This document shows, piece by piece, positions 14,921 to 60,869 of a stretch of DNA of 64,000 nt. Within the stretch, counting starts at the first letter, position 1, and each line of letters starts with the position of its first letter. The stretch comes from Eledone cirrhosa (lineage: Eukaryota): the NCBI GenBank assembly GCA_964016885.1, contig OZ024746.1:26908001-26972000 (forward strand), written 5' to 3'. The notes beneath the pieces were generated by a model that worked only from the letters and a program-made list of their open reading frames with translations, searched no databases and had not been told where the DNA came from. The position numbers and the translations under genes are program-made.

Positions 14921-15432
14921 CTGATGACCCCCATCCCCCCTCTCTCGGGGTCCTGACTCTTTTCCTATTACCCACACTACTACCCTAAGTATTGAGTACT
15001 CTGGTGCGTTATGGTCCACCTGCTTTCTTACCACACTTTCTTTGTTGTTCTCTTTCTCTCTCTCTCTCTCTTTATATATATATATATATGTATGTATATA
15101 TAATATATGGAGGCACATGGCTTAGTGGTTAGATCATTGGCCGCGATATCCAATTTTAGCGGCCTAAATGCCGCTTACTTCAATGTATAAGACTATTCCA
15201 ACAAATTTACATTCCCCTTTTTTTAGCCGTAAAAAGAAATATAGATTTATTTATTGTTTTTTTTTTTGCGATTTATTTGCCACTGGGGTATAGATTTCTT
15301 TATTTGCCCCTTTTTTGTTTGTTTGTTTGTTTTTTTTTGCGATTTATTAGCCTTTTGGGGTGACACACACCCCCGTAGAAAGTGTGCGACCTTTCTGCCA
15401 GGGAGCACAGAGAGAGGGGGTGCTCCCTTCTC

Positions 15433-15712
15433 TTACCTGTACAAGCCGATATAGAGAGATGGCCCACTTACACGGGTCATTATTGCTACTTTCACCCATC
15501 TGTCATGGAATTGGCTGGGACAGTGCCTTTTTCTCCACCTTGATCCTTCTTTCGAAGTGGTATCGGAAGAAGAGGACCATTTGTTGGCCGGCGACATATC
15601 CCCACAGTTTCCTCGTTGCAAACGCATCTGGGACATTTCTTTTCCAAGGGATTTCCGTCCCGGAATCCGTGTCTGTAGAGCCTTTCCCGAACGGGCAGGG
15701 CCCCTCGGTATA
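15433..15712 (-). mobile_element. L1/Tx1 ORF2 C-terminal fragment (left arm copy)
   Basis: Mirror of 16262-16543; ends ...FHDRWVKVAIMTRVSGPSLYIGLYR*. Confidence 0.65.
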
Positions 15713-15764
15713 ATAGTAAGTATTAGTGGTTGTAATAAAAATGCAATCAAAATGTAATAAATAC

Positions 15765-15900
15765 CTTCACCGATTTCTTTCCTTATATTATCAACAGAAG
15801 TTGGTATGTCACCCAAAGTTCGCTTTGTATGTTCCCGAATAGCAGTGAATTTTGATAAAACTGTTTCTAATTACTTCTCCACAGTAAGACAAATATCCAT
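15765..15900 (-). pseudogene. RMND5: RMND5-like first coding exon, left arm copy with premature stop (MDICLTVEK*)
   Basis: 136-nt mirror of 16074-16209; TAA at codon 10; same G|GTATTT donor. Confidence 0.7.
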
Positions 15901-16073
15901 GTGTAGTTGAAGAGGATAAGTATGAAAGAACAGTCATTTAAATTTACAGATGGACAGATGTGGTGTTTGGCAGGGTTTGAGATATATAGAAAAATAATTA
16001 TTTACAGAAAAAGAAAATAATAATAAAGAATTATTATAATTTTTTTAAAGATTTATATCTTTTTGGACTACAC

Positions 16074-16209
16074 ATGGATATTTGTCTTACTGTGGAGGAG
16101 GAATTAGAAACAGTTTTATCAAAATTCACTGCTATTCGGGAACATACAAAGCGAACTTTGGGTGACATACCAACTTCTGTTGATAATATAAGGAAAGAAA
16201 TCAGTGAAG
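16074..16209 (+). pseudogene. RMND5: RMND5-like first coding exon (captured fragment): MDICLTVEEELETVLSKFTAIREHTKRTLGDIPTSVDNIRKEISE
   Basis: Matches the recalled N-terminus of metazoan RMND5A/B (MDQCVTVERELEKVLHKF...). Similarity stops at a phase-1 donor AG|GTATTT; upstream acceptor TTTTTTTAAAG ends at 16050. No later RMND5 exons recognised in the window. Confidence 0.75.
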
Positions 16210-16261
16210 GTATTTATTACATTTTGATTGCATTTTTATTACAACCACTAATACTTACTAT

Positions 16262-16543
16262 TATACCGAGGGGCCCTGCCCGTTCGGGAAAGGCTCTACA
16301 GACACGGATTCCGGGACGGAAACCCCTTGGAAAAGAAATGTCCCAGATGCGTTTGCAACGAGGAAACTGTGGGGATATGTCGCCGGCCAACAAATGGTTC
16401 TCTTCTTCCGATACCACTTCGAAAGAAGGATCAAGGTGGAGAAAAAGGCACTCAGTCCCAGCCAATTCCATGAAAGATGGGTGAAAGTAGCAATAATGGC
16501 CCGTGTAAGTGGGCCATCTCTCTATATCGGCTTGTACAGGTAA
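16262..16543 (+). mobile_element. Internally deleted L1/Tx1 ORF2 C-terminal fragment (zf-RVT region + end)
   Basis: Frame reads YRGALPVRERLYRHGFRDGNPLEKKCPRCVCNEETV (L1/Tx1 zinc-finger signature), then shifts to GQQMVLFFRYHFERRIKVEKKALSPSQFHERWVKVA...*. Confidence 0.7.
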
Positions 16544-16974
16544 GAGAAGAAGGGAGCACCCCCTCTCTCTGTGCTCCCTGGCAGAAAGGTCGCACACTTT
16601 CTACGGGGGTGTGTGTCACCCCAAAAGGCTAATAAATCGTAAAAAAACAAAAAAGGGGCAAATAAAGAAATCTATACCCCAGTGGCAAATAAATCGCAAA
16701 AAAAACAATAAATAAATCTATATTTCTTTTAACGGCTAAAAAAAGGGGAATGTAAATTTGTTGGAATAGCCTCATACATTGAAGTAAGCAGCAACTACAG
16801 CAAGTAAGCGGCATTTAGGCCGCTAAAATTGGATATCGCCGCATCGGCTTTGCAATCGAAAGGTTGTGAGTTCAATTCTCAGACCGGGTGATGTGCTCTT
16901 TCCATGAGCTCCAATTTACTCAGCTGTAGAAATGAGATGATAGGGACTGGGGTCCCTATCATTCCACTGCAAAG

Positions 16975-18128
16975 TAGATAGTAGGAGTGTGGAAGATGAG
17001 GTGGGAAGCGGAGGAGGAGGAGACAAGGTGTTTGATGGTGGAGGAAACTTGTTGTTGGTAGAGGGGTGTGGGGTCAGGGCGTTACGGAGCTGCCTGAGGG
17101 TTTCAGCCGTGTAGAGGTCAGCGTGCCATACCACCACGGCGCCGGCTTGATGACGATGTCATCGCAGCTACGGAGAGCGATGAGTTCGCCCCGTGAGATG
17201 TTATTCCGTTTGGAACGGTGGCGGAAGTCGAAGCGATTTACTGTGCTACGGCAGGCGTCAACGAACGTGTCCAGGGTGCTAAATTGCCCTGGTGCCGGCG
17301 TCCAAGACGATGGTCGGCGGCACGGATCCGGCGAGAAACGGATCTGGGGCGTTCGGAGCCGGTGGTGTTAGATGGAAAATGTGCCTGTAGTTTCGTGCGT
17401 CGCACGAATCGTTCGACTTCCGTTCGGTTGCGGAACTCGTCGCTGTGTGGAGTGTGGGGTATGAAGCGAAGGCCTCTATTGATTAGTGAGCGCTCAGGTG
17501 CGGAGAGGGGGAGGTCAGGGGTATGGTGACAACAAGTGGGGGGTAGGGGGTGGGTTCTGTTTGGGTGTGGGGAGGGGAGGGTGGAGACGAGGTAAGGGTG
17601 TGAGGTGGGGGAGGGGAGTGTGTGGTGGAGGGTGGTGGGGATGGGTGTGGGAAGGTCACGGGGATGGGCGGGTGGTGGAGAGGAGTGAGTGAAGCTTAAG
17701 GGCTTTGGTGGAGGTGAGGAAGGAGAATAGGTCGTGGTTGAGGTTTTAGATGAAGAGGAAGATGGAGTGGGCAAGGAGGGGGGTGGCATGTGGAGTTAAG
17801 GTGGAGGAGGGTGGGGGTGAGTTCGTGGTCAAGGTTGTGGATGGTGGAGAGGGAGGTGCGGATGGAGTTGAGCATTAGGAGGCGCGAGGATCGGGTGAGG
17901 ATACGTTGGGTGGAGGGGGAAGCGGAAGGAGAGGTGTGGAAGTGTAGTCGGGAGAGGAGGCAGCGGCTGAGGAAATGGATGTGGTTGGAATGCCGGGTTT
18001 TGCCGAAGAGAAGGTAGGAGAGTTGGAGGGCCGAAGGGAGATAGCAGGGTGGGGGGGGGGGGGGGGTGAGAGGAAAAGTTTGAGGTGGGTGTGGAGTTGG
18101 TGGAGGAAGGATCTCAGGCTGGGCATGG
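16975..18128 (-). mobile_element. Penelope-like element (PLE) ORF N-terminal/pre-RT fragment, frameshifted
   Basis: LSAPERSLINRGLRFIP...EVERFVRRTKLQAHF and NISRGELIALRSCDDIVIKPA/AVVVWHADLYTAETLRQL match the PLE IVIKPADKGGAVVVW motif, with DKGG deleted. Adjacent (TA)n at 18138-18160. Confidence 0.8.
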
Positions 18129-20172: not shown

Positions 20173-20567
20173 AATACAGGTCAAACTCACAAAGCAAAAA
20201 AACAGCATGTCTGGTGCTATTACATTAAAAAGCAACGGAAAGTGTGCTCAAAAACAGAAGAAACAGGTTATTTATTGTTATTTTATTAAAATTTTGAGCT
20301 CTGCAGTTTGTGCAATAATGGCCCATAATGTAATCCATGGAGGTTGAAAAATCATCCAGCCTTTTCGATTACTGATTGACCAAGGGTACAGATTAGCATC
20401 ATGCTTCTATAATCTTTACCAGGATATATATTAATAAACTCCAATATAACCTAACACACACATATATATATATATATATATGGAAAGTTATATTTAAATT
20501 GTTGGGTTACAACTAGTAAATATTTATAACTGATATAAAAGCACTCGACAAGTATTTGGAGTATATT

Positions 20568-20937
20568 TACGATATTAAATAAATGGAAACTATATTTATA
20601 AAACCATATTTATTTCATTATATATATTTCAGGGATATCATATTAACAATATGCTATGCCTTCCTCAGACAAAATACAATATAGACAGTTTTATAGATAA
20701 ATAGATTTGACATACCGTTCAACATCGACTTGTATTTGAAAAGTTGATTTGGCAGAATCAACTTTTCAAATACAAGTCGATATTGAACGGTATGTCAAAT
20801 CTATTTATCTATAAAACTGTCTATATTGTATTTTGTCTGAGGAAGGCATAGCATAGTGTTAATATGATATCCCTGAAATATATATAATGAAATAAATATG
20901 GTTTTATAAATATAGTTTCCATTTATTTAATATCGTA
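20568..20937. repeat. 370-bp near-perfect spacerless palindrome
   Basis: Centre at 20752/20753; the arms differ at only a few positions; (TA)n follows. Confidence 0.95.
20829..20894 (+). ncRNA. Hammerhead ribozyme candidate (mirror copy on the minus strand at 20611-20676)
   Basis: UAUUUUGU-CUGAGGA-AGG...CCU-GAAA-UAUAUA-UA-AUGAAAUA. 8-bp stem I with two G.U pairs, palindromic stem III, AATAAA immediately after. Confidence 0.5.
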
Positions 20938-21599
20938 TATATATATATATATATATACTATGTGATATATGGCTTTTTCTCTCTATATATATACATATAT
21001 TTCTTAATTTGAATTATATATTCATTAAAAACAACAGAACGTTGGACAAGAAACGTAATTTCAATGACCCAGCTTCATCATCCAAATATGATGTAAGACC
21101 CTGGTGATTTTATGAGGCGTTAATTGCAGAATTAGTTATATAAGAGAACAGGATTTTGTTGAACAGGCCTTAAAGTTTCGGGCACTTGTCCTTCATCAGA
21201 AGATAGAAAAAGAAATAGAAGTGGAGAGATATTGTGCTGAGAAGGACCTGCCCAACCCATGCAAGCACGTAGCGGGTATAAATAAATTATTGGGTTGTTG
21301 TTTGTTGTTGATCAAATGTGTTTACCAATTCTAATGTGTGATAATTTGATGTCGTAAATCTATGGATAACTGTTGTCTTAAGTGAACTGGAGCGAACTAT
21401 TTTATCACAATGGTGTTATCTTCTGACAATCTGCAGATGGCCTCTAGAAAAGGATTCCTTCAGACAATTTGGTGACACTAGTCCCAAACAAAGAAATTAA
21501 ATATCTATGAAGCTAAAAGCTCAGTGTGTGTGATCACAATGATCTATTTAGCTAACTTGGGAACAAAAGTTCACTACACACACACACACACACACATAT

Positions 21600-47829: not shown

Positions 47830-50800
47830 CTAACCTATTTTAGTAGTCATTACCTGGATATGGCTACTATGTTAGTTATTACTTGGACATGTCTACTTGT
47901 CCTACCTCGGTACCCATTGCCTGAACAGGGCTACTGACTTACCTTGGTAGCTATTACCTGGACATGGCTACTATGGTAGCTATTACCTGGACATGGTTAC
48001 TGTGGTAGCTATTACCTGGACATGGCTACTATGGTAGCTATTACCTGGACATGGCTAGTATGGTAGCTATTACCTGGACATGGTTACTGTGGTAGCTATT
48101 ACCTGGACATGGTTTCTGTGGTAGCTATTACCTGGACATGGTTTCTGTGGTAGCTATTACCTGGACATGGTTACTGTGGTAGCTATTACCTGGACATGGT
48201 TTCTGTGGTAGCTATTACCTGGACATGGTTTCTGTGGTAGCTATTACCTGGACATGGCTACTGTGGTAGCTATTACCTGGACATGGCTACTATGGTAGCT
48301 ATTACCTGGACATGGCTACTGTGGTAGCTATTACCTGGACATGGCTACTATGGTAGCTATTACCTGGACATGGCTACTGTGGTAGCTATTACCTGGACAT
48401 GGCTACTATGGTAGCTATTACCTGGACATGGTTACTGTGGTAGCTATTACCTAGACATGGTTACTGTGGTAGCTATTACCTAGACATGGTTACTGTGGTA
48501 GCTATTACCTAGACATGGTTACTGTGGTAGCTATTACCTAGACATGGTTACTGTGGTAGCTATTTCCTGGACATGGTTACTGTGGTAGCTATTACCTGGA
48601 CATGGTTACTGTGGTAGCTATTACCTAGACATGGTTACTGTGGTAGCTATTACCTGGACATGGTTACTGTGGTAGCTATTACCTGGACATGGTTACTGTG
48701 GTAGCTATTACCTAGACATGGCTACTGTGGTAGCTATTACCTGGACATGGTTACTGTGGTAGCTATTACCTGGACATGGTTACTGTGGTAGCTATTACCT
48801 GGACATGGTTACTGTGGTAGCTATTACCTAGACATGGCTACTGTGGTAGCTATTACCTAGACATGGTTACTGTGGTAGCTATTACCTGGACATGGTTACT
48901 GTGGTAGCTATTACCTGGACATGGTTACTGTGGTAGCTATTACCTAGACATGGCTACTGTGGTAGCTATTACCTGGACATGGCTACTGTGGTAGCTATTA
49001 CCTGGACATGGCTACTGTGGTAGCTATTACCTAGACATGGCTACTGTGGTAGCTATTACCTGGACATGGTTACTGTGGTAGCTATTACCTAGACATGGTT
49101 ACTGTGGTAGCTATTACCTAGACATGGCTACTGTGGTAGCTATTACCTGGACATGGCTACTGTGGTAGCTATTACCTAGACATGGCTACTGTGGTAGCTA
49201 TTACCTGGACATGGTTACTGTGGTAGCTATTACCTGGACATGGTTACTGTGGTAGCTATTACCTAGACATGGCTACTGTGGTAGCTATTACCTGGACATG
49301 GCTACTGTGGTAGCTATTACCTAGACATGGCTACTGTGGTAGCTATTACCTGGACATGGTTACTGTGGTAGCTATTACCTGGACATGGTTACTGTGGTAG
49401 CTATTACCTGGACATGGCTACTGTGGTAGCTATTACCTGGACATGGTTACTGTGGTAGCTATTACCTGGACATGGTTACTATGGTAGCTATTACCTGGAC
49501 ATGGTTACTGTGGTAGCTATTACCTGGACATGGTTACTGTGGTAGCTATTACCTGGACATGGCTACTGTGGTAGCTATTACCTGGACATGGTTACTGTGG
49601 TAGCTATTACCTGGACATGGTTACTATGGTAGCTATTACCTAGACATGGTTACTGTGGTAGCTATTACCTGGACATGGTTACTGTGGTAGCTATTACCTA
49701 GACATGGCTACTATGGTAGCTATTACCTGGACATGGCTACTGTGGTAGCTATTACCTGGACATGGTTACTGTGGTAGCTATTACCTGGACATGGTTACTG
49801 TGGTAGCTATTACCTAGACATGGCTACTATGGTAGCTATTACCTGGACATGGCTACTGTGGTAGCTATTACCTGGACATGGTTACTGTGGTAGCTATTAC
49901 CTGGACATGGTTACTGTGGTAGCTATTACCTAGACATGGCTACTATGGTAGCTATTACCTGGACATGGCTACTGTGGTAGCTATTACCTGGACATGGTTA
50001 CTGTGGTAGCTATTACCTGGACATGGTTACTGTGGTAGCTATTACCTGGACATGGCTACTGTGGTAGCTATTACCTGGACATGGCTACTGTGGTAGCTAT
50101 TACCTAGACATGGTTACTATGGTAGCTATTACCTGGACATGGTTACTGTGGTAGCTATTACCTGGACATGGTTACTGTGGTAGCTATTACCTGGACATGG
50201 TTACTGTGGTAGCTATTACCTGGACATGGCTACTGTGGTAGCTATTACCTGGACATGGCTACTGTGGTAGCTATTACCTAGACATGGTTTCTGTGGTAGC
50301 TATTACCTAGACATGGTTACTGTGGTAGCTATTACCTGGACATGGTTACTGTGGTAGCTATTACCTAGACATGGCTACTGTGGTAGCTATTACCTGGACA
50401 TGGCTACTGTGGTAGCTATTACCTAGACATGGTTTCTGTGGTAGCTATTACCTGGACATGGCTACTGTGGTAGCTATTACCTGGACATGGTTACTGTGGT
50501 AGCTATTACCTAGACATGGTTACTGTGGTAGCTATTACCTGGACATGGCTACTATGGTAGCTATTACCTAGACATGGCTACTGTGGTAGCTATTACCTGG
50601 ACATGGTTACTGTGGTAGCTATTACCTAGACATGGCTACTGTGGTAGCTATTACCTGGACATGGCTACTGTGGTAGCTATTACCTAGACATGGTTTCTGT
50701 GGTAGCTATTACCTGGACATGGTTACTGTGGTAGCTATTACCTAGACATGGCTACTGTGGTAGCTATTACCTGGACATGGCTACTGTGGTAGCTATTACC

Positions 50801-53800
50801 TAGACATGGTTTCTGTGGTAGCTATTACCTGGACATGGCTACTGTGGTAGCTATTACCTGGACATGGTTACTGTGGTAGCTATTACCTAGACATGGTTAC
50901 TGTGGTAGCTATTACCTGGACATGGTTACTGTGGTAGCTATTACCTAGACATGGCTACTGTGGTAGCTATTACCTGGACATGGCTACTGTGGTAGCTATT
51001 ACCTAGACATGGTTTCTGTGGTAGCTATTACCTGGACATGGCTACTGTGGTAGCTATTACCTGGACATGGTTACTGTGGTAGCTATTACCTAGACATGGT
51101 TACTGTGGTAGCTATTACCTGGGCATGGCTACTATGGTAGCTATTACCTAGACATGGCTACTGTGGTAGCTATTACCTGGACATGGTTACTGTGGTAGCT
51201 ATTACCTAGACATGGCTACTGTGGTAGCTATTACCTGGACATGGCTACTGTGGTAGCTATTACCTGGACATGGCTACTGTGGTAGCTATTACCTAGACAT
51301 GGTTTCTGTGGTAGCTATTACCTGGACATGGCTACTGTGGTAGCTATTACCTAGACATGGTTACTGTGGTAGCTATTACCTAGACATGGTTACTGTGGTA
51401 GCTATTACCTGGACATGGCTACTATGGTAGCTATTACCTAGACATGGCTACTGTGGTAGCTATTACCTGGACATGGTTACTGTGGTAGCTATTACCTGGA
51501 CATGGCTACTGTGGTAGCTATTACCTAGACATGGTTACTGTGGTAGCTATTACCTAGACATGGTTACTGTGGTAGCTATTACCTAGACATGGTTACTGTG
51601 GTAGCTATTACCTAGACATGGTTACTGTGGTAGCTATTACCTAGACATGGTTACTGTGGTAGCTATTACCTGGACATGGTTACTGTGGTAGCTATTACCT
51701 GGACATGGCTACTATGGTAGCTATTACCTAGACATGGCTACTGTGGTAGCTATTACCTAGACATGGTTACTGTGGTAGCTATTACCTGGACATGGTTACT
51801 GTGGTAGCTATTACCTGGACATGGTTACTGTGGTAGCTATTACCTGGACATGGCTACTGTGGTAGCTATTACCTAGACATGGCTACTATGGTAGCTATTA
51901 CCTGGACATGGTTACTATGGTAGCTATTACCTAGACATGGTTACTGTGGTAGCTATTACCTAGACATGGTTACTGTGGTAGCTATTACCTAGACATGGTT
52001 ACTGTGGTAGCTATTACCTAGACATGGTTACTGTGGTAGCTATTACCTGGACATGGCTACTGTGGTAGCTATTACCTGGACATGGTTACTATGGTAGCTA
52101 TTACCTGGACATGGCTACTGTGGTAGCTATTACCTAGACATGGTTTCTGTGGTAGCTATTACCTGGACATGGTTACTGTGGTAGCTATTTCCTGGACATG
52201 GTTACTGTGGTAGCTATTACCTAGACATGGTTACTGTGGTAGCTATTACCTGGACATGGCTACTGTGGTAGCTATTACCTGGACATGGTTTCTGTGGTAG
52301 CTATTACCTAGACATGGTTACTGTGGTAGCTATTACCTGGACATGGTTACTGTGGTAGCTATTACCTGGACATGGTTACTGTGGTAGCTATTTCCTGGAC
52401 ATGGTTACTGTGGTAGCTATTACCTGGACATGGTTACTGTGGTAGCTATTACCTGGACATGGCTACTATGGTAGCTATTACCTAGACATGGTTACTGTGG
52501 TAGCTATTACCTGGACATGGCTACTGTGGTAGCTATTACCTGGACATGGTTACTGTGGTAGCTATTACCTGGACATGGCTACTGTGGTAGCTATTACCTG
52601 GACATGGCTACTGTGGTAGCTATTACCTGGACATGGTTACTGTGGTAGCTATTACCTGGACATGGCTACTGTGGTAGCTATTACCTGGACATGGCTACTG
52701 TGGTAGCTATTACCTGGACATGGTTACTGTGGTAGCTATTACCTGGACATGGCTACTGTGGTAGCTATTACCTGGACATGGCTACTGTGGTAGCTATTAC
52801 CTGGACATGGTTACTGTGGTAGCTATTACCTGGACATGGCTACTGTGGTAGCTATTACCTGGACATGGTTTCTGTGGTAGCTATTACCTAGACATGGTTA
52901 CTGTGGTAGCTATTACCTGGACATGGCTACTGTGGTAGCTATTACCTAGACATGGCTACTGTGGTAGCTATTACCTGGACATGGCTACTGTGGTAGCTAT
53001 TACCTGGACATGGTTACTGTGGTAGCTATTACCTGGACATGGCTACTGTGGTAGCTATTACCTGGACATGGCTACTGTGGTAGCTATTACCTGGACATGG
53101 CTACTGTGGTAGCTATTACCTAGACATGGTTACTATGGTAGCTATTACCTAGACATGGCTACTGTGGTAGCTATTACCTAGACATGGCTACTATGGTAGC
53201 TATTACCTAGACATGGCTACTGTGGTAGCTATTACCTGGACATGGCTACTATGGTAGCTATTACCTAGACATGGTTACTGTGGTAGCTATTACCTGGACA
53301 TGGCTACTGTGGTAGCTATTACCTGGACATGGCTACTGTGGTAGCTATTACCTGGACATGGCTACTATGGTAGCTATTACCTAGACATGGCTACTATGGT
53401 AGCTATTACCTGGACATGGTTACTGTGGTAGCTATTACCTGGACATGGCTACTGTGGTAGCTATTACCTGGACATGGTTACTGTGGTAGCTATTACCTGG
53501 ACATGGCTACTGTGGTAGCTATTACCTGGACATGGCTACTGTGGTAGCTATTACCTGGACATGGCTACTGTGGTAGCTATTACCTGGACATGGCTACTAT
53601 GGTAGCTATTACCTAGACATGGTTACTATGGTAGCTATTACCTGGACATGGTTACTGTGGTAGCTATTACCTGGACATGGCTACTGTGGTAGCTATTACC
53701 TGGACATGGCTACTGTGGTAGCTATTACCTGGACATGGCTACTATGGTAGCTATTACCTAGACATGGTTACTATGGTAGCTATTACCTGGACATGGTTAC

Positions 53801-55985
53801 TGTGGTAGCTATTACCTGGACATGGCTACTGTGGTAGCTATTACCTGGACATGGCTACTATGGTAGCTATTACCTAGACATGGCTACTGTGGTAGCTATT
53901 ACCTAGACATGGCTACTGTGGTAGCTATTACCTAGACATGGTTACTGTGGTAGCTATTACCTGGACATGGTTACTATGGTAGCTATTACCTAGACATGGC
54001 TACTATGGTAGCTATTACCTGGACATGGTTACTGTGGTAGCTATTACCTGGACATGGCTACTGTGGTAGCTATTACCTAGACATGGTTTCTGTGGTAGCT
54101 ATTACCTGGACATGGCTACTGTGGTAGCTATTACCTGGACATGGTTACTGTGGTAGCTATTACCTGGACATGGCTACTGTGGTAGCTATTACCTAGACAT
54201 GGTTTCTGTGGTAGCTATTACCTGGACATGGTTACTGTGGTAGCTATTACCTGGACATGGCTACTGTGGTAGCTATTACCTAGACATGGTTTCTGTGGTA
54301 GCTATTACCTGGACATGGTTACTGTGGTAGCTATTACCTGGACATGGTTACTGTGGTAGCTATTACCTGGACATGGCTACTGTGGTAGCTATTACCTAGA
54401 CATGGTTTCTGTGGTAGCTATTACCTAGACATGGTTACTGTGGTAGCTATTACCTGGACATGGTTACTGTGGTAGCTATTACCTGGACATGGCTACTGTG
54501 GTAGCTATTACCTGGACATGGCTACTGTGATAGCTATTACCTGGACATGGCTACTGTGGTAGCTATTACCTGGACATGGTTACTGTGGTAGCTATTACCT
54601 GGACATGGTTACTGTGGTAGCTATTACCTGGACATGGCTACTGTGGTAGCTATTACCTGGACATGGTTACTGTGGTAGCTATTACCTGGACATGGTTACT
54701 GTGGTAGCTATTACCTGGACATGGCTACTGTGGTAGCTATTACCTAGACATGGTTACTGTGGTAGCTATTACCTGGGCATGGTTACTATGGTAGCTATTA
54801 CCTGGACATGGCTACTGTGGTAGCTATTACCTGGACATGGTTACTGTGGTAGCTATTACCTGGACATGGTTACTATGGTAGCTATTACCTGGACATGGCT
54901 ACTGTGGTAGCTATTACCTGGACATGGCTACTGTGGTAGCTATTACCTGGACATGGTTACTGTGGTAGCTATTACCTGGACATGGTTACTGTGGTAGCTA
55001 TTACCTGGACATGGCTACTGTGGTAGCTATTACCTAGACATGGTTACTGTGGTAGCTATTACCTAGACATGGTTACTGTGGTAGCTATTACCTAGACATG
55101 GTTACTGTGGTAGCTATTACCTGGACATGGCTACTGTGGTAGCTATTACCCGGACATGGTTACTGTGGTAGCTATTACCTGGACATGGTTACTGTGGTAG
55201 CTATTACCTGGACATGGCTACTGTGGTAGCTATTACCTGGACATGGCTACTGTGGTAGCTATTACCTAGACATGGTTACTGTGGTAGCTATTACCTGGAC
55301 ATGGTTACTGTGGTAGCTATTACCTGGACATGGTTACTGTGGTAGCTATTACCTGGACATGGTTACTGTGGTAGCTATTACCTAGACATGGTTACTGTGG
55401 TAGCTATTACCTGGACATGGTTACTATGGTAGCTATTACCTGGACATGGCTACTGTGGTAGCTATTACCTGGACATGGTTACTGTGGTAGCTATTACCTG
55501 GACATGGTTACTATGGTAGCTATTACCTGGACATGGCTACTGTGGTAGCTATTACCTGGACATGGCTACTGTGGTAGCTATTACCTGGACATGGTTACTA
55601 TGGTAGCTATTACCTGGACATGGCTACTATGGTAGCTATTACCTGGACATGGTTACTGTGGTAGCTATTACCTGGACATGGTTACTGTGGTAGCTATTAC
55701 CTGGACATGGTTACTGTGGTAGCTATTACCTGGACATGGTTACTGTGGTAGCTATTACCTGGACATGGTTACCTTGGTAGCTATTACCTGGACATGGTTA
55801 CTGTGGTAGCTATTACCTGGACATGGTTACTGTGGTAGCTATTACCTGGACATGGTTACTGTGGTAGCTATTACCTAGACATGGCTAGTATGGTAGCTAT
55901 TACCTAGACATGGTTACTATGGTAGCTATTTCCTGGACATGGCTATTGACCTACTTTGGTAGTCATTACCTGGACATGTCTATCT
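47830..55985. repeat. 29-bp satellite, roughly 275 monomers: GGTAGCTATTACCTRGACATGGYTWCTRT
   Basis: Strict 29-bp period over 47946-55945, with degenerate longer units at both edges. Confidence 0.98.
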
Positions 55986-56110: not shown

Positions 56111-56883
56111 TCATCATCATCACCGTTTTACGTCCGTTCTTCCACGCTAGCATGGGTTAGACGGGTTGTCCTGTTGTGGGCAGTGTCTGGTCGGCTGACC
56201 ATGCCTTGCTCATACAGGAACTGATCTGGCTTGATTTCTACAGCTGGATGCCCTTCCTAACACCAACCTCATTTACAGTGAGTGCTGGGTGCTTTTTCGT
56301 GGCGCCTACACGTCCACTTTACAGTGTGGGCTGGGTGCTTTTTTGCCGTGGCACCTCCACGACCACCTTGCGGTGGGGGGAGTGGGGGCATATTGTTTAT
56401 ATGCTTCAGCATGTACCCATGGGAGGTCGGGTACCCTGTATTACTGCGTGACGCCAGAAGTCACGGTCGTGTGTCATTGACTTTGAGAGGTGTAGTTGGG
56501 TAAGGTCGGCTTTTATCACCTCATCCCAAGTCATCTTGGGTCTCCCCACTCCGCGGTTTCCATCAACTTCTAGTGCTCTGCACCTTTTTATGCAGCTGTC
56601 ATCCTTCATACGCATCACATGTCCATACCAGCGTAACCGCCTCTCCTGCACGCAGCATTTGATTCCTCTTATGTTCAGTCTCTCTCTCAATTCCTTTATG
56701 CTTTGTCGTTCACGTATATTACTGTTACACATCCATCGGAGCATGCAGGCTTCGTTTCTCTCTAATCTACGTAAGTCTTCCACCTTCAGCGCCCAGGTCT
56801 CACTACCATGCAACATCGCTGTTCGGATACACGCATCATACAGTCTGCCTTTCATTCTGAGGGAGAAGCCTTTTGCAGCTAGC
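56111..56883 (-). mobile_element. 5'-truncated RTE LINE (ORF C-terminus, 3' UTR, (GAT)n tail); sister subfamily of 56971-59660
   Basis: ORF 56406-56885 LAAKGFSLRMKGRLYDACIRTAMLHGSETW...ERRLRWYGHVMRM; tail at 56111-56160. Confidence 0.92.
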
Positions 56884-56970
56884 ATATTGTATTTGTATTT
56901 ATATGTGCATCAATGTTATATATTGTATTTGTATTTATATGTGCATCAATGTTATATATTGTATTTGTAT
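56884..56970. repeat. 36-bp minisatellite, left part (continues at 59660-59777)
   Basis: Unit TGTGCATCAATGTTATATATTGTATTTGTATTTATA on both sides of the LINE. Confidence 0.9.
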
Positions 56971-59660
56971 CAATCACTTGATCACCTACAGATCAGGGGA
57001 ACATACCAGCCAGGTAGATTATATCCTTACCAGAAGACGTGACAAAGTGACTGTTGTAAACACTAAATCCCTCCCCCATGAGGAATGCACCTCCCAACAT
57101 AGACTGATAATTAGCGACCTAATAGTCAGGACGAGACGTACTAGACAACAGAAGAGGACTATCCTCAGGAGAAAAATATGGAAGCTAAAGGACCCCACAG
57201 CCAAAAATAAATTCCAAAGCATATTACTTGATGCTTTCGACAGTAAGGAAGAGCAATTAGAGTCGTACAAGGTAGAGGAACAGTGGGAATTCCTGAAAGC
57301 AAACCTGCTGACGGCGGCAGACGAAGTCTGTGGCTGGAGCAGGCCTGTAGGCAGGAGGAGAGTAACATGGTGGTGGAACAGTAAGGTGGAGGGGTCAATT
57401 AAGGCCAAAAAGCAGGCTTGGAAAGTATGGCGGGATGGGGAAAGCAGAGAAGACTATCAAGTGGCCAGGAGGGAAGCTAGGAGACAAGTGTACTTCGCAA
57501 GAAGGGAAGCAGAGGAAAGAAAGTTCAAGCATGTTCTACAACGTGAGGACCAAAAACGTGAGGTGTTCAGGATTGCTAGGCAATGTGTCAAGGAAAACAG
57601 TGATATTGTCGGGGATAAGTGTGTACTTAACGATGACGGCATACTTGCCATCACCGACGCTGATAAGAAGGTAGCTTGGAAGTGTCACTATGAAAGGCTA
57701 CTAAATGAGGAGAATAAATGGGAGAAAAACAGTCTCCCCCACATCGACCCAATAGAGGGACCAGCAGTGTTAGTCGAGGGTAGTATAATAAGTAAGGCAA
57801 TCAAGGATATGAAGACGGGTAAGGCGGCTGGGCCTTCGGAAATAGTTGCTGAGATGCTGAAGGCATCTGGTACGGTGGGACACACCATGGTCACCCGGAT
57901 AGTCAACCAAGTCATACAGCATGGGGTTGTTCCGAAGGACTGGCGTAGCAGCATCATCGTTAACTGTTATAAGGGTAAAGGAGATGCCCTAGATAGGAGT
58001 AACTATAGAGGCATTAAATTAATCGACCAGGTCATGAAGGTCACGGAAAAAGTAATAGCGCAACTAATCAGAGAGCGAATTGATCTAGATGAAATGCAGT
58101 TCGGGTTTGTGTCAGGAAAAAGTACCACGGATGCTCTTTTCATTGTACGACAACTACAGGAGAAGTACCTAGCTAAAAGTAAACCCCTATACTTAGCTTT
58201 TGTCGACTTGGAGAAGGCCTTCGACAGAGTCCCCCGTTCCATTATCTGGTGGGCTCTTAGAAAACTAGGTGTTGATGAATGGCTTGTGAGAGCTATACAA
58301 GCCATGTATAAAGAAACAGTCAGCAAGGTTAGAATTAACAACGAATATAGTGAAGAGTTTAGTGTAAAAGTTGGTGTTCATCAGGGCTCTGTTCTTAGCC
58401 CCCTACTATTTATTATTGCCCTCCAGGCTATAACAGTGGAGTTCAAGACCGGCTGCCCATGGGAACTCCTATACGCAGATGATCTAACGCTCATAGCTGA
58501 ATCAATGGCCGAGCTAGAGAAGAAATTCCAAACATGGAAGCACGGCCTAGAATCAAAAGGCCTTAAAATTAACCTGGCTAAGACTAAAGTTCTAGTTTGT
58601 AAGAAAGAAAATAAGGCGGCGGTCCCCTTCGGGAAGTGGCCATGCGCAGAGTGTAGTAAAGGCGTAGGTAGAAATTCCATTTTGTGTCCCAAATGCAAAG
58701 TTTGGGTGTATAAAAGATGTAGTGGGATCACAGGTAAGCTAACTAAGAACATAGATTTTACATGTGGCCGGTGTTCTGGGGCAATAAGTAGCAGCAAGTG
58801 CCCACAAAATACTAGCTCTTTCAACTGCGCAGAGGGTTCTATAGAAATAGTGGACAGCTTCCGTTACCTGGGTGACAAAATCAGCAGTGGGGGAGGGTGC
58901 TCTGAAAGTACAGTAGCTAGAGTCAGAACTGGGTGGAAAAAGTTCAGAGAGCTTATACCACTATTAGCCGCTAAAGGGCTCTCCCTAAAAATGAAAGGCA
59001 GGTTGTACGATGCCTGCATACGAACAGCAATGTTGCATGGCAGTGAGACCTGGGCATTGTGTGCAGAGGATATACGCAGACTAGAGAGAAACGAAGCTTG
59101 CATGCTCCGCTGGATGTGTAATAGTAATATACGTGAACGACAAAGCATAAACGAACTAAGGAAAAAATTAGAAATAAGAGGGATCAGATGTTGTTTACTC
59201 GAGAGAAGGCTACGTTGGTATGGTCACGTGATGCGCATGAAGGACGATAGCTGTATAACAAAGTGCAGGGCAATAAAGATAGACGGTAGCCACGGAATAG
59301 GCAGACCCAGAAAAACCTGGGACGAGCTGATAAACTCCGACCTCACACACTTACACCTCACCAAGACAATGTCACTGGACCGAGACCTTTGGCGGTACTC
59401 AGTAATAGAGAAGACCCGCCTTACCTAAATACAAAGTAAAACCTACTACAGTCAGTAGGCATCTCTAACAAAACACGGATTAAAACCTCCCAGACCCACA
59501 CTGTAAACGTGGTTGGTGTTAGGAAGGGCATCCAACTGTAGAAAACCTGCCAGACAGTCCTATGCGAGCAAGACAATCACTCTTGCCTCAAGTGGGAAAA
59601 CCCCCGTCCAAACCCATGCAAGCGTGGAACACGGACGTTAAACGTTGATGATGATGATGA
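56971..59660 (+). mobile_element. Young 5'-truncated RTE-clade LINE with 3' UTR and (GAT)n tail
   Basis: Begins in the APE C-terminus (ITYRSG..SQVDYIL...SQHRLI); open RT; tail CCCATGCAAGCGTGGAACACGGACGTTAAACGTT(GAT)n. Confidence 0.95.
56972..59428 (+). CDS. RTE polyprotein lacking its N-terminus: APE tail, reverse transcriptase, PHD-type zinc finger
   Basis: RT motifs NYRGIKL, QFGF, AFVDLEKAFDRV, GVHQGSVLSPLLF, YADDL, FRYLG; Cys cluster at 58643-58774. The first ~33 aa of the computed ORF come from minisatellite. Confidence 0.9.
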   Translation, partial: NHLITYRSGEHTSQVDYILTRRRDKVTVVNTKSLPHEECTSQHRLIISDLIVRTRRTRQQKRTILRRKIWKLKDPTAKNKFQSILLDAFDSKEEQLESYKVEEQWEFLKANLLTAADEVCGWSRPVGRRRVTWWWNSKVEGSIKAKKQAWKVWRDGESREDYQVARREARRQVYFARREAEERKFKHVLQREDQKREVFRIARQCVKENSDIVGDKCVLNDDGILAITDADKKVAWKCHYERLLNEENKWEKNSLPHIDPIEGPAVLVEGSIISKAIKDMKTGKAAGPSEIVAEMLKASGTVGHTMVTRIVNQVIQHGVVPKDWRSSIIVNCYKGKGDALDRSNYRGIKLIDQVMKVTEKVIAQLIRERIDLDEMQFGFVSGKSTTDALFIVRQLQEKYLAKSKPLYLAFVDLEKAFDRVPRSIIWWALRKLGVDEWLVRAIQAMYKETVSKVRINNEYSEEFSVKVGVHQGSVLSPLLFIIALQAITVEFKTGCPWELLYADDLTLIAESMAELEKKFQTWKHGLESKGLKINLAKTKVLVCKKENKAAVPFGKWPCAECSKGVGRNSILCPKCKVWVYKRCSGITGKLTKNIDFTCGRCSGAISSSKCPQNTSSFNCAEGSIEIVDSFRYLGDKISSGGGCSESTVARVRTGWKKFRELIPLLAAKGLSLKMKGRLYDACIRTAMLHGSETWALCAEDIRRLERNEACMLRWMCNSNIRERQSINELRKKLEIRGIRCCLLERRLRWYGHVMRMKDDSCITKCRAIKIDGSHGIGRPRKTWDELINSDLTHLHLTKTMSLDRDLWRYSVIEKTRLT

Positions 59661-60691: not shown

Positions 60692-60869
60692 ATTTGCAGT
60701 GGAATGATATGGACCACAGTCCCTATCATCCCATTTCTACAGCTGAATAAACTGGAGCAATGTGAAATAAAGTGTCTTGCTCAAGGAAACAACACATCAC
60801 CCGGTCTGAGAATTGAACTCACAACCTTTCGATTGCAAGGCCAATGTTCTAACCACTAAGCCATGTGCC
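60692..60869 (-). mobile_element. Uninterrupted tRNA-derived SINE (paralog of the split copy at 15109-16973)
   Basis: Minus strand: A box TGGCTTAGTGG, B box GAGTTCAATTC, body CCTTGAGCAAGACACTTTATTTCAC. Confidence 0.88.

Follow-up and report, generated by a model that had tools for sequence, protein, structure and literature searches.

An RMND5 exon carried in both arms of a foldback Merlin transposon family

Introduction

The window analysed here, a stretch of 64,000 nucleotides corresponding to G000:C6:26,908,001-26,972,000 within a 3.0-Gb genome, contains at 15142-16840 a long inverted repeat with Merlin-like ends in which a piece of the host gene RMND5 stands once in each arm. The locus consequently raises the question of how a host exon came to lie twice, as mirror images, within a single mobile element, and of whether the exon does anything there. 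The account developed below, in which considerable confidence can be placed, is that the element is a non-autonomous Merlin belonging to a family that likely made a single RMND5 capture behind its transposase gene, that the captured piece was likely mirrored by arm-to-arm copying, and that the exon is carried as neutral cargo.

Results

Structure of the element

The preliminary description had reported inverted arms of ~770 bp around a 159-bp spacer, and alignment of the arms (15142-15907 with 16067-16840) bore this out, with 12 mismatches and five indels (20, 3, 14, 3 and 2 nt) and the spacer located at 15908-16066. Read inward, the right end is GGCGATATCC, while at the left end C replaces the first G. 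The degenerate 8-bp target site duplication (TSD) that had also been claimed consists of the flanks TCATTGGC (left) and GCATCGGC (right), identical at six of eight positions, and the empty paralogous SINE duly carries a single ACATTGGC at the unoccupied site. Each arm contains the 136-nt ATG-to-GT segment previously noted, in opposite orientations (Table 1); the right copy is open, but the left copy is not, a TAA at codon 10 (MDICLTVEK*LETV) having been overlooked.

The bulk of the arms and nearly all of the spacer proved to be cargo (RMND5 5' flank and the 3' end of a LINE), recognisable Merlin terminus being confined to the outermost ~100-120 bp on either side. The capture had been described as an exon plus the start of an intron, and both are present; the cargo additionally includes ~150 bp of the RMND5 5' flank and the LINE 3' end. 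Comparison with the related loci L069 and L042 placed a central deletion junction, with 3-nt microhomology (ACT), at 16067-16069. When 400 bp of each arm was folded as a hairpin, the resultant z value was -52.6 relative to 20 shuffles, well beyond what chance would produce.

Table 1. Features of the element and of its empty target site, in window positions
Feature	Position	Strand	Basis
Host SINE 5' part, ending in left TSD TCATTGGC (15134-15141)	15110..15141	+	alignment to empty paralogue 60692-60869
Left Merlin terminus, first base C vs family G	15142..15243	+	terminus common to transposase-bearing L042, L126, L069
Left-arm LINE 3' end and reiterated tail, borders approximate	15244..15710	-	mirrors 16265-16718
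Left-arm RMND5 intron 1 start	15711..15764	-	parent match up to L056:6519
Left-arm RMND5 coding exon 1, TAA at codon 10	15765..15900	-	
RMND5 5' flank, likely 5' UTR; bulk of apparent spacer	15901..16047	-	aligned to parent L056:6172-6335
Remnant of Merlin sequence behind transposase stop, up to central deletion junction	16048..16069	-	comparison with L069, L042
Right-arm RMND5 coding exon 1, open over 45 codons, followed by donor GT at 16210	16074..16209	+	
Right-arm RMND5 intron 1 start, deletion-shortened vs older copies	16210..16264	+	
LINE 3' end: ORF2 end, partly deleted 3' UTR, reiterated AATAAA tail	16265..16718	+	70% identity over 37 aa to L138 LINE; 8 LINE copies aligned
Right Merlin terminus, final letters GGATATCGCC	16719..16840	+	
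Right TSD GCATCGGC (16841-16848), then remaining host SINE	16841..16975	+	
Empty paralogous SINE, unoccupied site	60692..60869	-	

Elsewhere in the window, an AT-rich near-perfect palindrome at 20562-20943 (188-nt arms, 6-nt loop) is unrelated to the RMND5-carrying Merlin, and large satellite arrays occupy 23129-46351 (50-bp unit, ~453 copies) and 47945-55942 (29-bp unit, ~276 copies). A LINE-like frame of 855 codons at 56409-59425 is preceded by an inverted copy of its own 3' part, a duplication that explains the 461-nt inverted repeat in that vicinity.

Merlin identity and copy number

Merlin elements are defined by GG ends, TSDs of 8-9 bp and a DDE_Tnp_IS1595 transposase (available sections of PMC8101967). 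The element at 15142-16840 derives from a Merlin family and has lost the transposase by deletion; by every defining feature examined, except an intact partner, it is a Merlin. The GG-initial 21-nt terminus has 144 exact matches in the genome as against none for the reversed control, so that the termini are not single-copy, and the further copies with 8-bp TSDs that had been anticipated are numerous: among 60 paired ends from the fetched loci, the TSD is exact over 8 bp in 41 and matches at 7/8 in six more, with a 6/8 match in one pair (that of the window element itself) and a match of 5/8 or less in 12, some of which are probably mispaired nested ends. An exact 9-bp TSD was found in none of the 60.

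Between the family termini, locus L042 encodes a transposase that matches PF12762 (DDE_Tnp_IS1595) above the cut-off at E=3.8e-15, and ends of the window type also occur on the transposase-bearing loci L062, L068, L069 and L126. The frame in L068 contains IDES, HTD and IEG motifs, which we take to be the catalytic blocks of the DDE triad. The description of the ends as Merlin-like accordingly holds. A MULE or Pack-MULE, with its 9-10-bp TSD and Mutator transposase, was rejected on the TSD lengths and on the PF12762 transposase; hAT, which shares an 8-bp TSD, was rejected on the PF12762 transposase within the family ends.

A genome search with PF12762, in which 150 of 448 candidates were scored and 25 loci fetched, revealed the window's ends on two of the 25. 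Using the transposase gene itself, 14 near-complete copies at 92% identity or more, plus fragments, were recovered (40 of 53 candidates scored), and among these 14 no intact frame was detected, the longest open frame being 283 aa. The autonomous partner that had been predicted is thus represented by transposase-bearing copies with the same ends, though not, among the 14, by one with an intact frame.

The 23-nt start of the RMND5 exon occurs 109 times in the genome, the parent included, which corresponds to at least 108 exon copies in elements, and in one sequence run the contig depth of the element-type exon was 799 compared with 9.4 for the parent flank, a difference of ~85-fold. The terminal inverted repeat (TIR) of ~770 bp is longer than the 24-462 bp of the original Merlin description and shorter than the 1000 bp listed in a table for two entries from zebrafish, as far as the available text of that literature extends.

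Two further observations concern Merlin copies at large. An open Merlin transposase frame of 332 aa in L090 (C27:18,611,836-18,612,822), which has no clear TIRs nearby, may represent an ancient copy or one that has been domesticated. In L141 (C2:27,943,041-27,946,503), L135, L105 and L139, family members are nested within the arms of others.

The captured exon and its parent gene

An exhaustive protein search conducted with the 45-aa exon peptide returned 49 matches at E<=0.001, one of them (P0049) a named insect RMND5 for which a PDB search gave human RMND5A at E=1e-79, and the proposal that the peptide is the RMND5 N-terminus was thereby confirmed. The peptide gave no match in Pfam or in a word-indexed protein search, and in a search of the PDB it ranked RMND5A top, but only at E=0.085. 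The parental locus was reached by a CTLH search of the genome and lies at G000:C5:79,536,336-79,558,761, where successive exons match P0049 residues 1-45, 47-94, 249-283 (weakly), 316-371 and 371-391. The captured exon is therefore exon 1 of RMND5, the intact gene being located on a different contig from the window.

The match between element and parent begins ~165 bp upstream of the ATG and ends ~50 bp inside intron 1, with older element copies reaching ~80 bp into the intron, and since it begins so far upstream of the ATG the apparent spacer of the window element is mostly RMND5 5' flank. The 5' joint of the cargo falls in an AT-rich overlap, and the borders of the captured piece are approximate. 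Throughout 120 kb around the parent gene, similarity to the element is confined to the captured piece. With a parent that is identifiable and itself outside the transposon, a captured piece inside TIR ends, and TSDs that are distinct among copies, the element has the core attributes of a Pack-TIR.

These data also bear on the reading that the window holds the real first exon of RMND5, or that the palindrome is an artefact of assembly, to which only a negligible probability can be assigned. In its favour, the exon in the right arm has an open frame and a preserved GT donor, and long inverted repeats may be assembled wrongly; set against this are the complete gene on C5, the arms differing by their 12 substitutions and five indels, the recurrence of the same deletion junction across many contigs, at 32 fetched loci of which some overlap, and independent contigs in which the element-type exon greatly exceeds the parent flank in depth. 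The parent locus and the dispersed copies refute both versions, and the exon in the window is neither the sole genomic copy nor part of the real gene.

The expectation that other copies would carry different host-gene cargo was not borne out: no other host gene was recognised as cargo, and the arms of sister families (see below) have the look of AT-rich repeats. In L140:2858-4311, unrelated DNA of 1.45 kb takes the place of the right part of a family member; it is possibly a second capture and looks like repeat fragments (LINE-like and SINE-like). Upstream of the parent gene, 270-330 bp before the ATG and outside the captured piece, L056:6003-6065 contains motifs that are presumably CCAAT-box-like and CCGGAAGT; the stretch is likely to be the RMND5 promoter.

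Palindromic shape and arm-to-arm copying

In all 16 distinct copies that retain the transposase 3' end (two loci without it being left out of the count), the RMND5 5' flank lies behind the transposase, and in seven of the 16 the exon, whole or partial, is present in both arms. One complete form, L126 (C11:53,551,045-53,554,872), is a 3,828-bp palindrome with an arm identity of 97% and an exact TSD, in which two transposase genes face outward with the cargo behind each. The window element has this same shape with the centre deleted at the 3-nt microhomology; other central deletions have yielded forms from ~370 bp upward, and many family copies have lost the exon by deletion.

Mirroring is not peculiar to the family with the RMND5 cargo. 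Members of a second Merlin family with GGCACTACAAC ends, L122 (C28:102,762,751-102,766,035), L123 and L125, are likewise palindromic with two outward-facing transposase genes, L125 having an exact 8-bp TSD, and in a third family with GGCGATCC ends (L127:3979-5839 and L128:3700-5587; ~70% transposase identity to the RMND5-carrying family) the transposase 3' end is mirrored in the left arm and the 8-bp TSDs are exact. Since all five loci are mirrored without the RMND5-LINE cargo, the mirror shape is independent of the cargo, and likely predates its capture. A cargo-free member of the RMND5-carrying family itself was not found: one reconstructed empty-arm pattern, the only reconstruction used, gave no matches, and old-type termini gave 10 matches with no cargo-free full element among them, the five other old-type loci inspected being short deletion derivatives. 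It is for this reason that we infer, rather than observe, the order of events set out below.

Comparison of 44 arms from 22 elements (eight of 30 having been dropped because only one arm passed extraction) indicated that the arms of single elements copy each other. Of 42 variants found in exactly two of the 44 arms, 21 fell in paired arms, belonging to a single element, where ~1 would be expected; the mean arm distance was 1.7% within and 3.0% between elements; and one and the same exon deletion is present in both arms of L126, L068 and L075. The homogenisation is partial, because the mate was the nearest arm in 19 of the 44 cases and not the nearest in the remaining 25, and assembly polishing could have contributed to the similarity of arms.

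Among 70 full exon copies, three of them gapped, six differences from the parent are common to 66 of the 67 without gaps, which points to one capture. Taken with the palindromic L126, the cargo-free mirrored sisters and the variants shared between arms, this makes a single RMND5 capture followed by mirroring into both arms likely. The earlier suggestion that captured DNA was copied into both arms is in keeping with the mirrored exon and the shared arm variants, and is refined by the finding that the mirror shape also belongs to sister families with no such cargo.

The LINE part of the cargo and the route of capture

The LINE 3' end adjoins the start of the RMND5 intron in sense orientation with RMND5. 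The fragment alone has no Pfam match, its identity having been established via full LINE copies, in particular through a 37-aa stretch that is 70% identical to the complete LINE of L138, an element with endonuclease, RT and zf-RVT domains (Pfam). The family, with 4,386 candidates in the genome, is one that we take to be Tx1-like. Wherever the RMND5 intron piece is intact in the mapped copies, the LINE comes after it; the joint between them has 2-5 nt of microhomology, and the cargo LINE reaches the natural LINE 3' end. At the very site where it ends, a full-length member of this LINE family, flanked by a 17-bp TSD, interrupts a Merlin arm at L138:2600-7540, a coincidence of site that favours LINE insertion into Merlin over capture from an RMND5 intron.

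Relatives of the L138 LINE often have 3' flanks of the TATATC type, which suggests a target preference of the family. A separate observation is that L135:4744-6690, nested in a Merlin copy, is a 1.9-kb inverted duplication with frames of 186-237 aa that presumably resemble a Penelope-type GIY-YIG end.

In the history proposed, a LINE would have inserted into a Merlin arm at the site also hit in L138, and repair of a break in the element would then have switched templates to genomic RMND5 DNA, a mechanism that has been proposed for Pack-TIRs, thereby replacing the stretch from the transposase 3' end to the middle of the LINE. The half-element would subsequently have been mirrored about a hairpin upstream of the transposase, with likeness of the arms kept by conversion, and central deletions would have given rise to the 1.7-kb form, moved in trans by the family transposase with the exon as neutral cargo.

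Template switching at the DNA level, in a Merlin arm that already bore the LINE, is judged the probable route of capture, given that intron sequence is included, that no clean TSD was found around the cargo, and that the route has been described for animal Pack-TIRs (available text of PMC8277862). The parent gene being on another contig speaks against it, single-copy animal Pack-TIRs having a cis bias according to the same text.

For the capture step only, it is conceivable, if rather unlikely, that the reverse transcriptase of the LINE, after copying the LINE 3' end, jumped to unspliced RMND5 pre-mRNA as template and so produced a chimera that was inserted in a Merlin arm. The shared orientation of RMND5 and LINE together with the intact LINE 3' end is the configuration of an mRNA/LINE chimera; the natural 3' end also falls at the site which the same LINE family used in L138, the RMND5 piece is the 5' end of the gene with no RMND5 sequence after the LINE, the 2-5 nt junction microhomology fits, and mammalian mRNA/L1 chimeras are mostly sense first exons (10.1101/2025.02.02.635956, in the part available). 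Such a route would nevertheless have needed an unspliced template, such events are rare (17 in the available part of that source), and by analogy with L138 a TSD of ~17 bp would be expected, whereas no clean TSD was found around the whole RMND5-LINE cargo, a region reshuffled by deletions and repeats.

A LINE might alternatively have entered RMND5 intron 1 first, in an allele since lost, so that flank, exon, intron and LINE were captured as one genomic piece. A single capture would then account for the LINE always following the intact intron piece in mapped copies. We regard this as very unlikely: at that position the parent today contains a repeat of very high copy number and no LINE match, no intron sequence follows the LINE, and the LINE 3' junction falls on a LINE target site in the Merlin arm. 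The history with template switching into an arm already bearing the LINE is that retained here.

Fate of the exon copies

All six element-wide differences from the parent are non-synonymous, and at five of the six positions the parent agrees with the exon of a relative (P0002), so that these five arose on the element lineage. With 21.5% of changes expected to be synonymous, the absence of synonymous changes among six has a probability of ~0.23 and is compatible with neutrality. Variants that arose later among the exon copies comprise eight synonymous and 40 non-synonymous changes, as against the same neutral expectation of 21.5% synonymous. Of the 70 full copies, five have stops, three are gapped and 61 are open. 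From these sequence comparisons the copies appear to be decaying neutrally, with no sign of selection on the peptide.

Besides organism A, two organisms labelled B and C are represented by sequence runs in which an element-type exon has the same diagnostic bases at five positions, and in the run from organism C most of the transposase gene is covered too; the capture therefore likely predates the split from organism A, or else crossed between them. Run X7, with another organism label, contains next to no element sequence and X5 has no transposase cover, neither of which shows absence. The parent upstream flank (L056:5600-6212) differs from run X6 (organism C) at 52 of ~610 letters, and the organism C element exon contig differs from a family copy at 5/247; the low divergence of that contig is possibly indicative of a slowly changing master or of transfer between species.

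A function for the mirrored exon, either through hairpin small RNAs regulating RMND5 or through a short dominant-negative peptide, is improbable on these data. A read-through transcript is predicted to form a hairpin of ~770 bp (400 bp per arm folded), blocks of 21-44 nt are perfectly identical between the arms and the 5' flank and exon of the parent, and silencing of RMND5 is on these two grounds possible in principle; the presence of the cargo in the runs of two other organisms would also suit a function. Opposed to it are the neutral variation among copies, stops included, the uniformly non-synonymous element-wide changes, five of which depart from the state of parent and relative, the occurrence of mirroring in cargo-free sister families, and the many family copies that have deleted the exon.

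A broader and quite speculative synthesis, which we think has little chance of being correct in full, would regard octopus-type Merlins as whole-element palindromes with mutually copying arms, in which any cargo automatically becomes a hairpin; the family would have taken up a LINE-made RMND5 pre-mRNA chimera, and small RNAs from tens of hairpin loci could repress RMND5, which encodes a subunit of the CTLH/GID ligase, in trans. Neutral carriage of the exon is the reading adopted here.

Discussion

With this family, the capture of gene fragments known from other animal DNA transposons reaches the Merlin superfamily and likely a cephalopod. The series from palindromic to half-deleted to fully deleted forms bears on how a foldback shape arises and is maintained, and allows a direct test of conversion between arms. 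The exon copies can mislead both the annotation of RMND5 and the mapping of reads. An influence on RMND5 regulation, hypothetical on these data, would add interest.

Plant Pack-MULEs are TIR transposons that carry gene fragments, and small-RNA effects on their parent genes have been proposed. They differ from the RMND5-carrying Merlin in superfamily and in TSD length.

With Merlin as defined in the available sections of PMC8101967 the family shares the 5'-GG ends, the 8-bp TSD and the DDE_Tnp_IS1595 transposase. The same sections record Merlin as abundant in Octopus bimaculoides (191 sequences) and tabulate Repbase Merlin-1_DR and Merlin-N5_DR with 1000-bp TIRs. Two features set the present family apart from the Merlin elements of those sections, with whose Repbase entries comparison was by tabulation only: its arms consist largely of captured host and LINE DNA, and entire elements are palindromic, with a pair of transposase genes. 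Two papers on mollusc transposable elements (PMC10294476 and PMC13282606) mention Merlin and, in their available parts, describe no capture, and the main text of PMC8277862 mentions neither Merlin, octopus nor mollusc. A literature search, with most subscription journals, Repbase, Dfam and the supplements of PMC8277862 and PMC13282606 outside its scope, found no prior description of an exon-carrying, Pack-TIR-like or whole-palindrome Merlin, or of RMND5 in connection with a transposon or octopus; Pack-TIR capture as seen here is thus likely to be new for the Merlin superfamily and for a cephalopod.

The fusion of a gene's first exon, in sense, to the 3' part of a LINE resembles the mRNA/LINE-1 chimeras of 10.1101/2025.02.02.635956. 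In the available text of that source, however, the chimeras are single insertions with a TSD around the whole, whereas the unit described here has no such TSD and has been multiplied by a DNA transposon.

Animal Pack-TIRs, including the multicopy Ssk-FB4 and Pack-hAT-N8_XT, offer a further parallel (PMC8277862, as far as its available text extends): each is a TIR element holding a piece of a host gene with introns and 5' flank, transposed repeatedly with distinct TSDs, and Ssk-FB4 is likewise a long-armed foldback (~700 bp). Some Pack-TIRs are transcribed or give rise to chimeric RNA. The multicopy cases in that source number ~3-4 copies, are non-autonomous and carry the cargo between their TIRs, whereas here the exon copies, far more numerous at 108 or above, lie inside both arms and ride in transposase-bearing copies as well. 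Ssk-FB4 yields a protein; the RMND5 cargo, by contrast, appears to be decaying.
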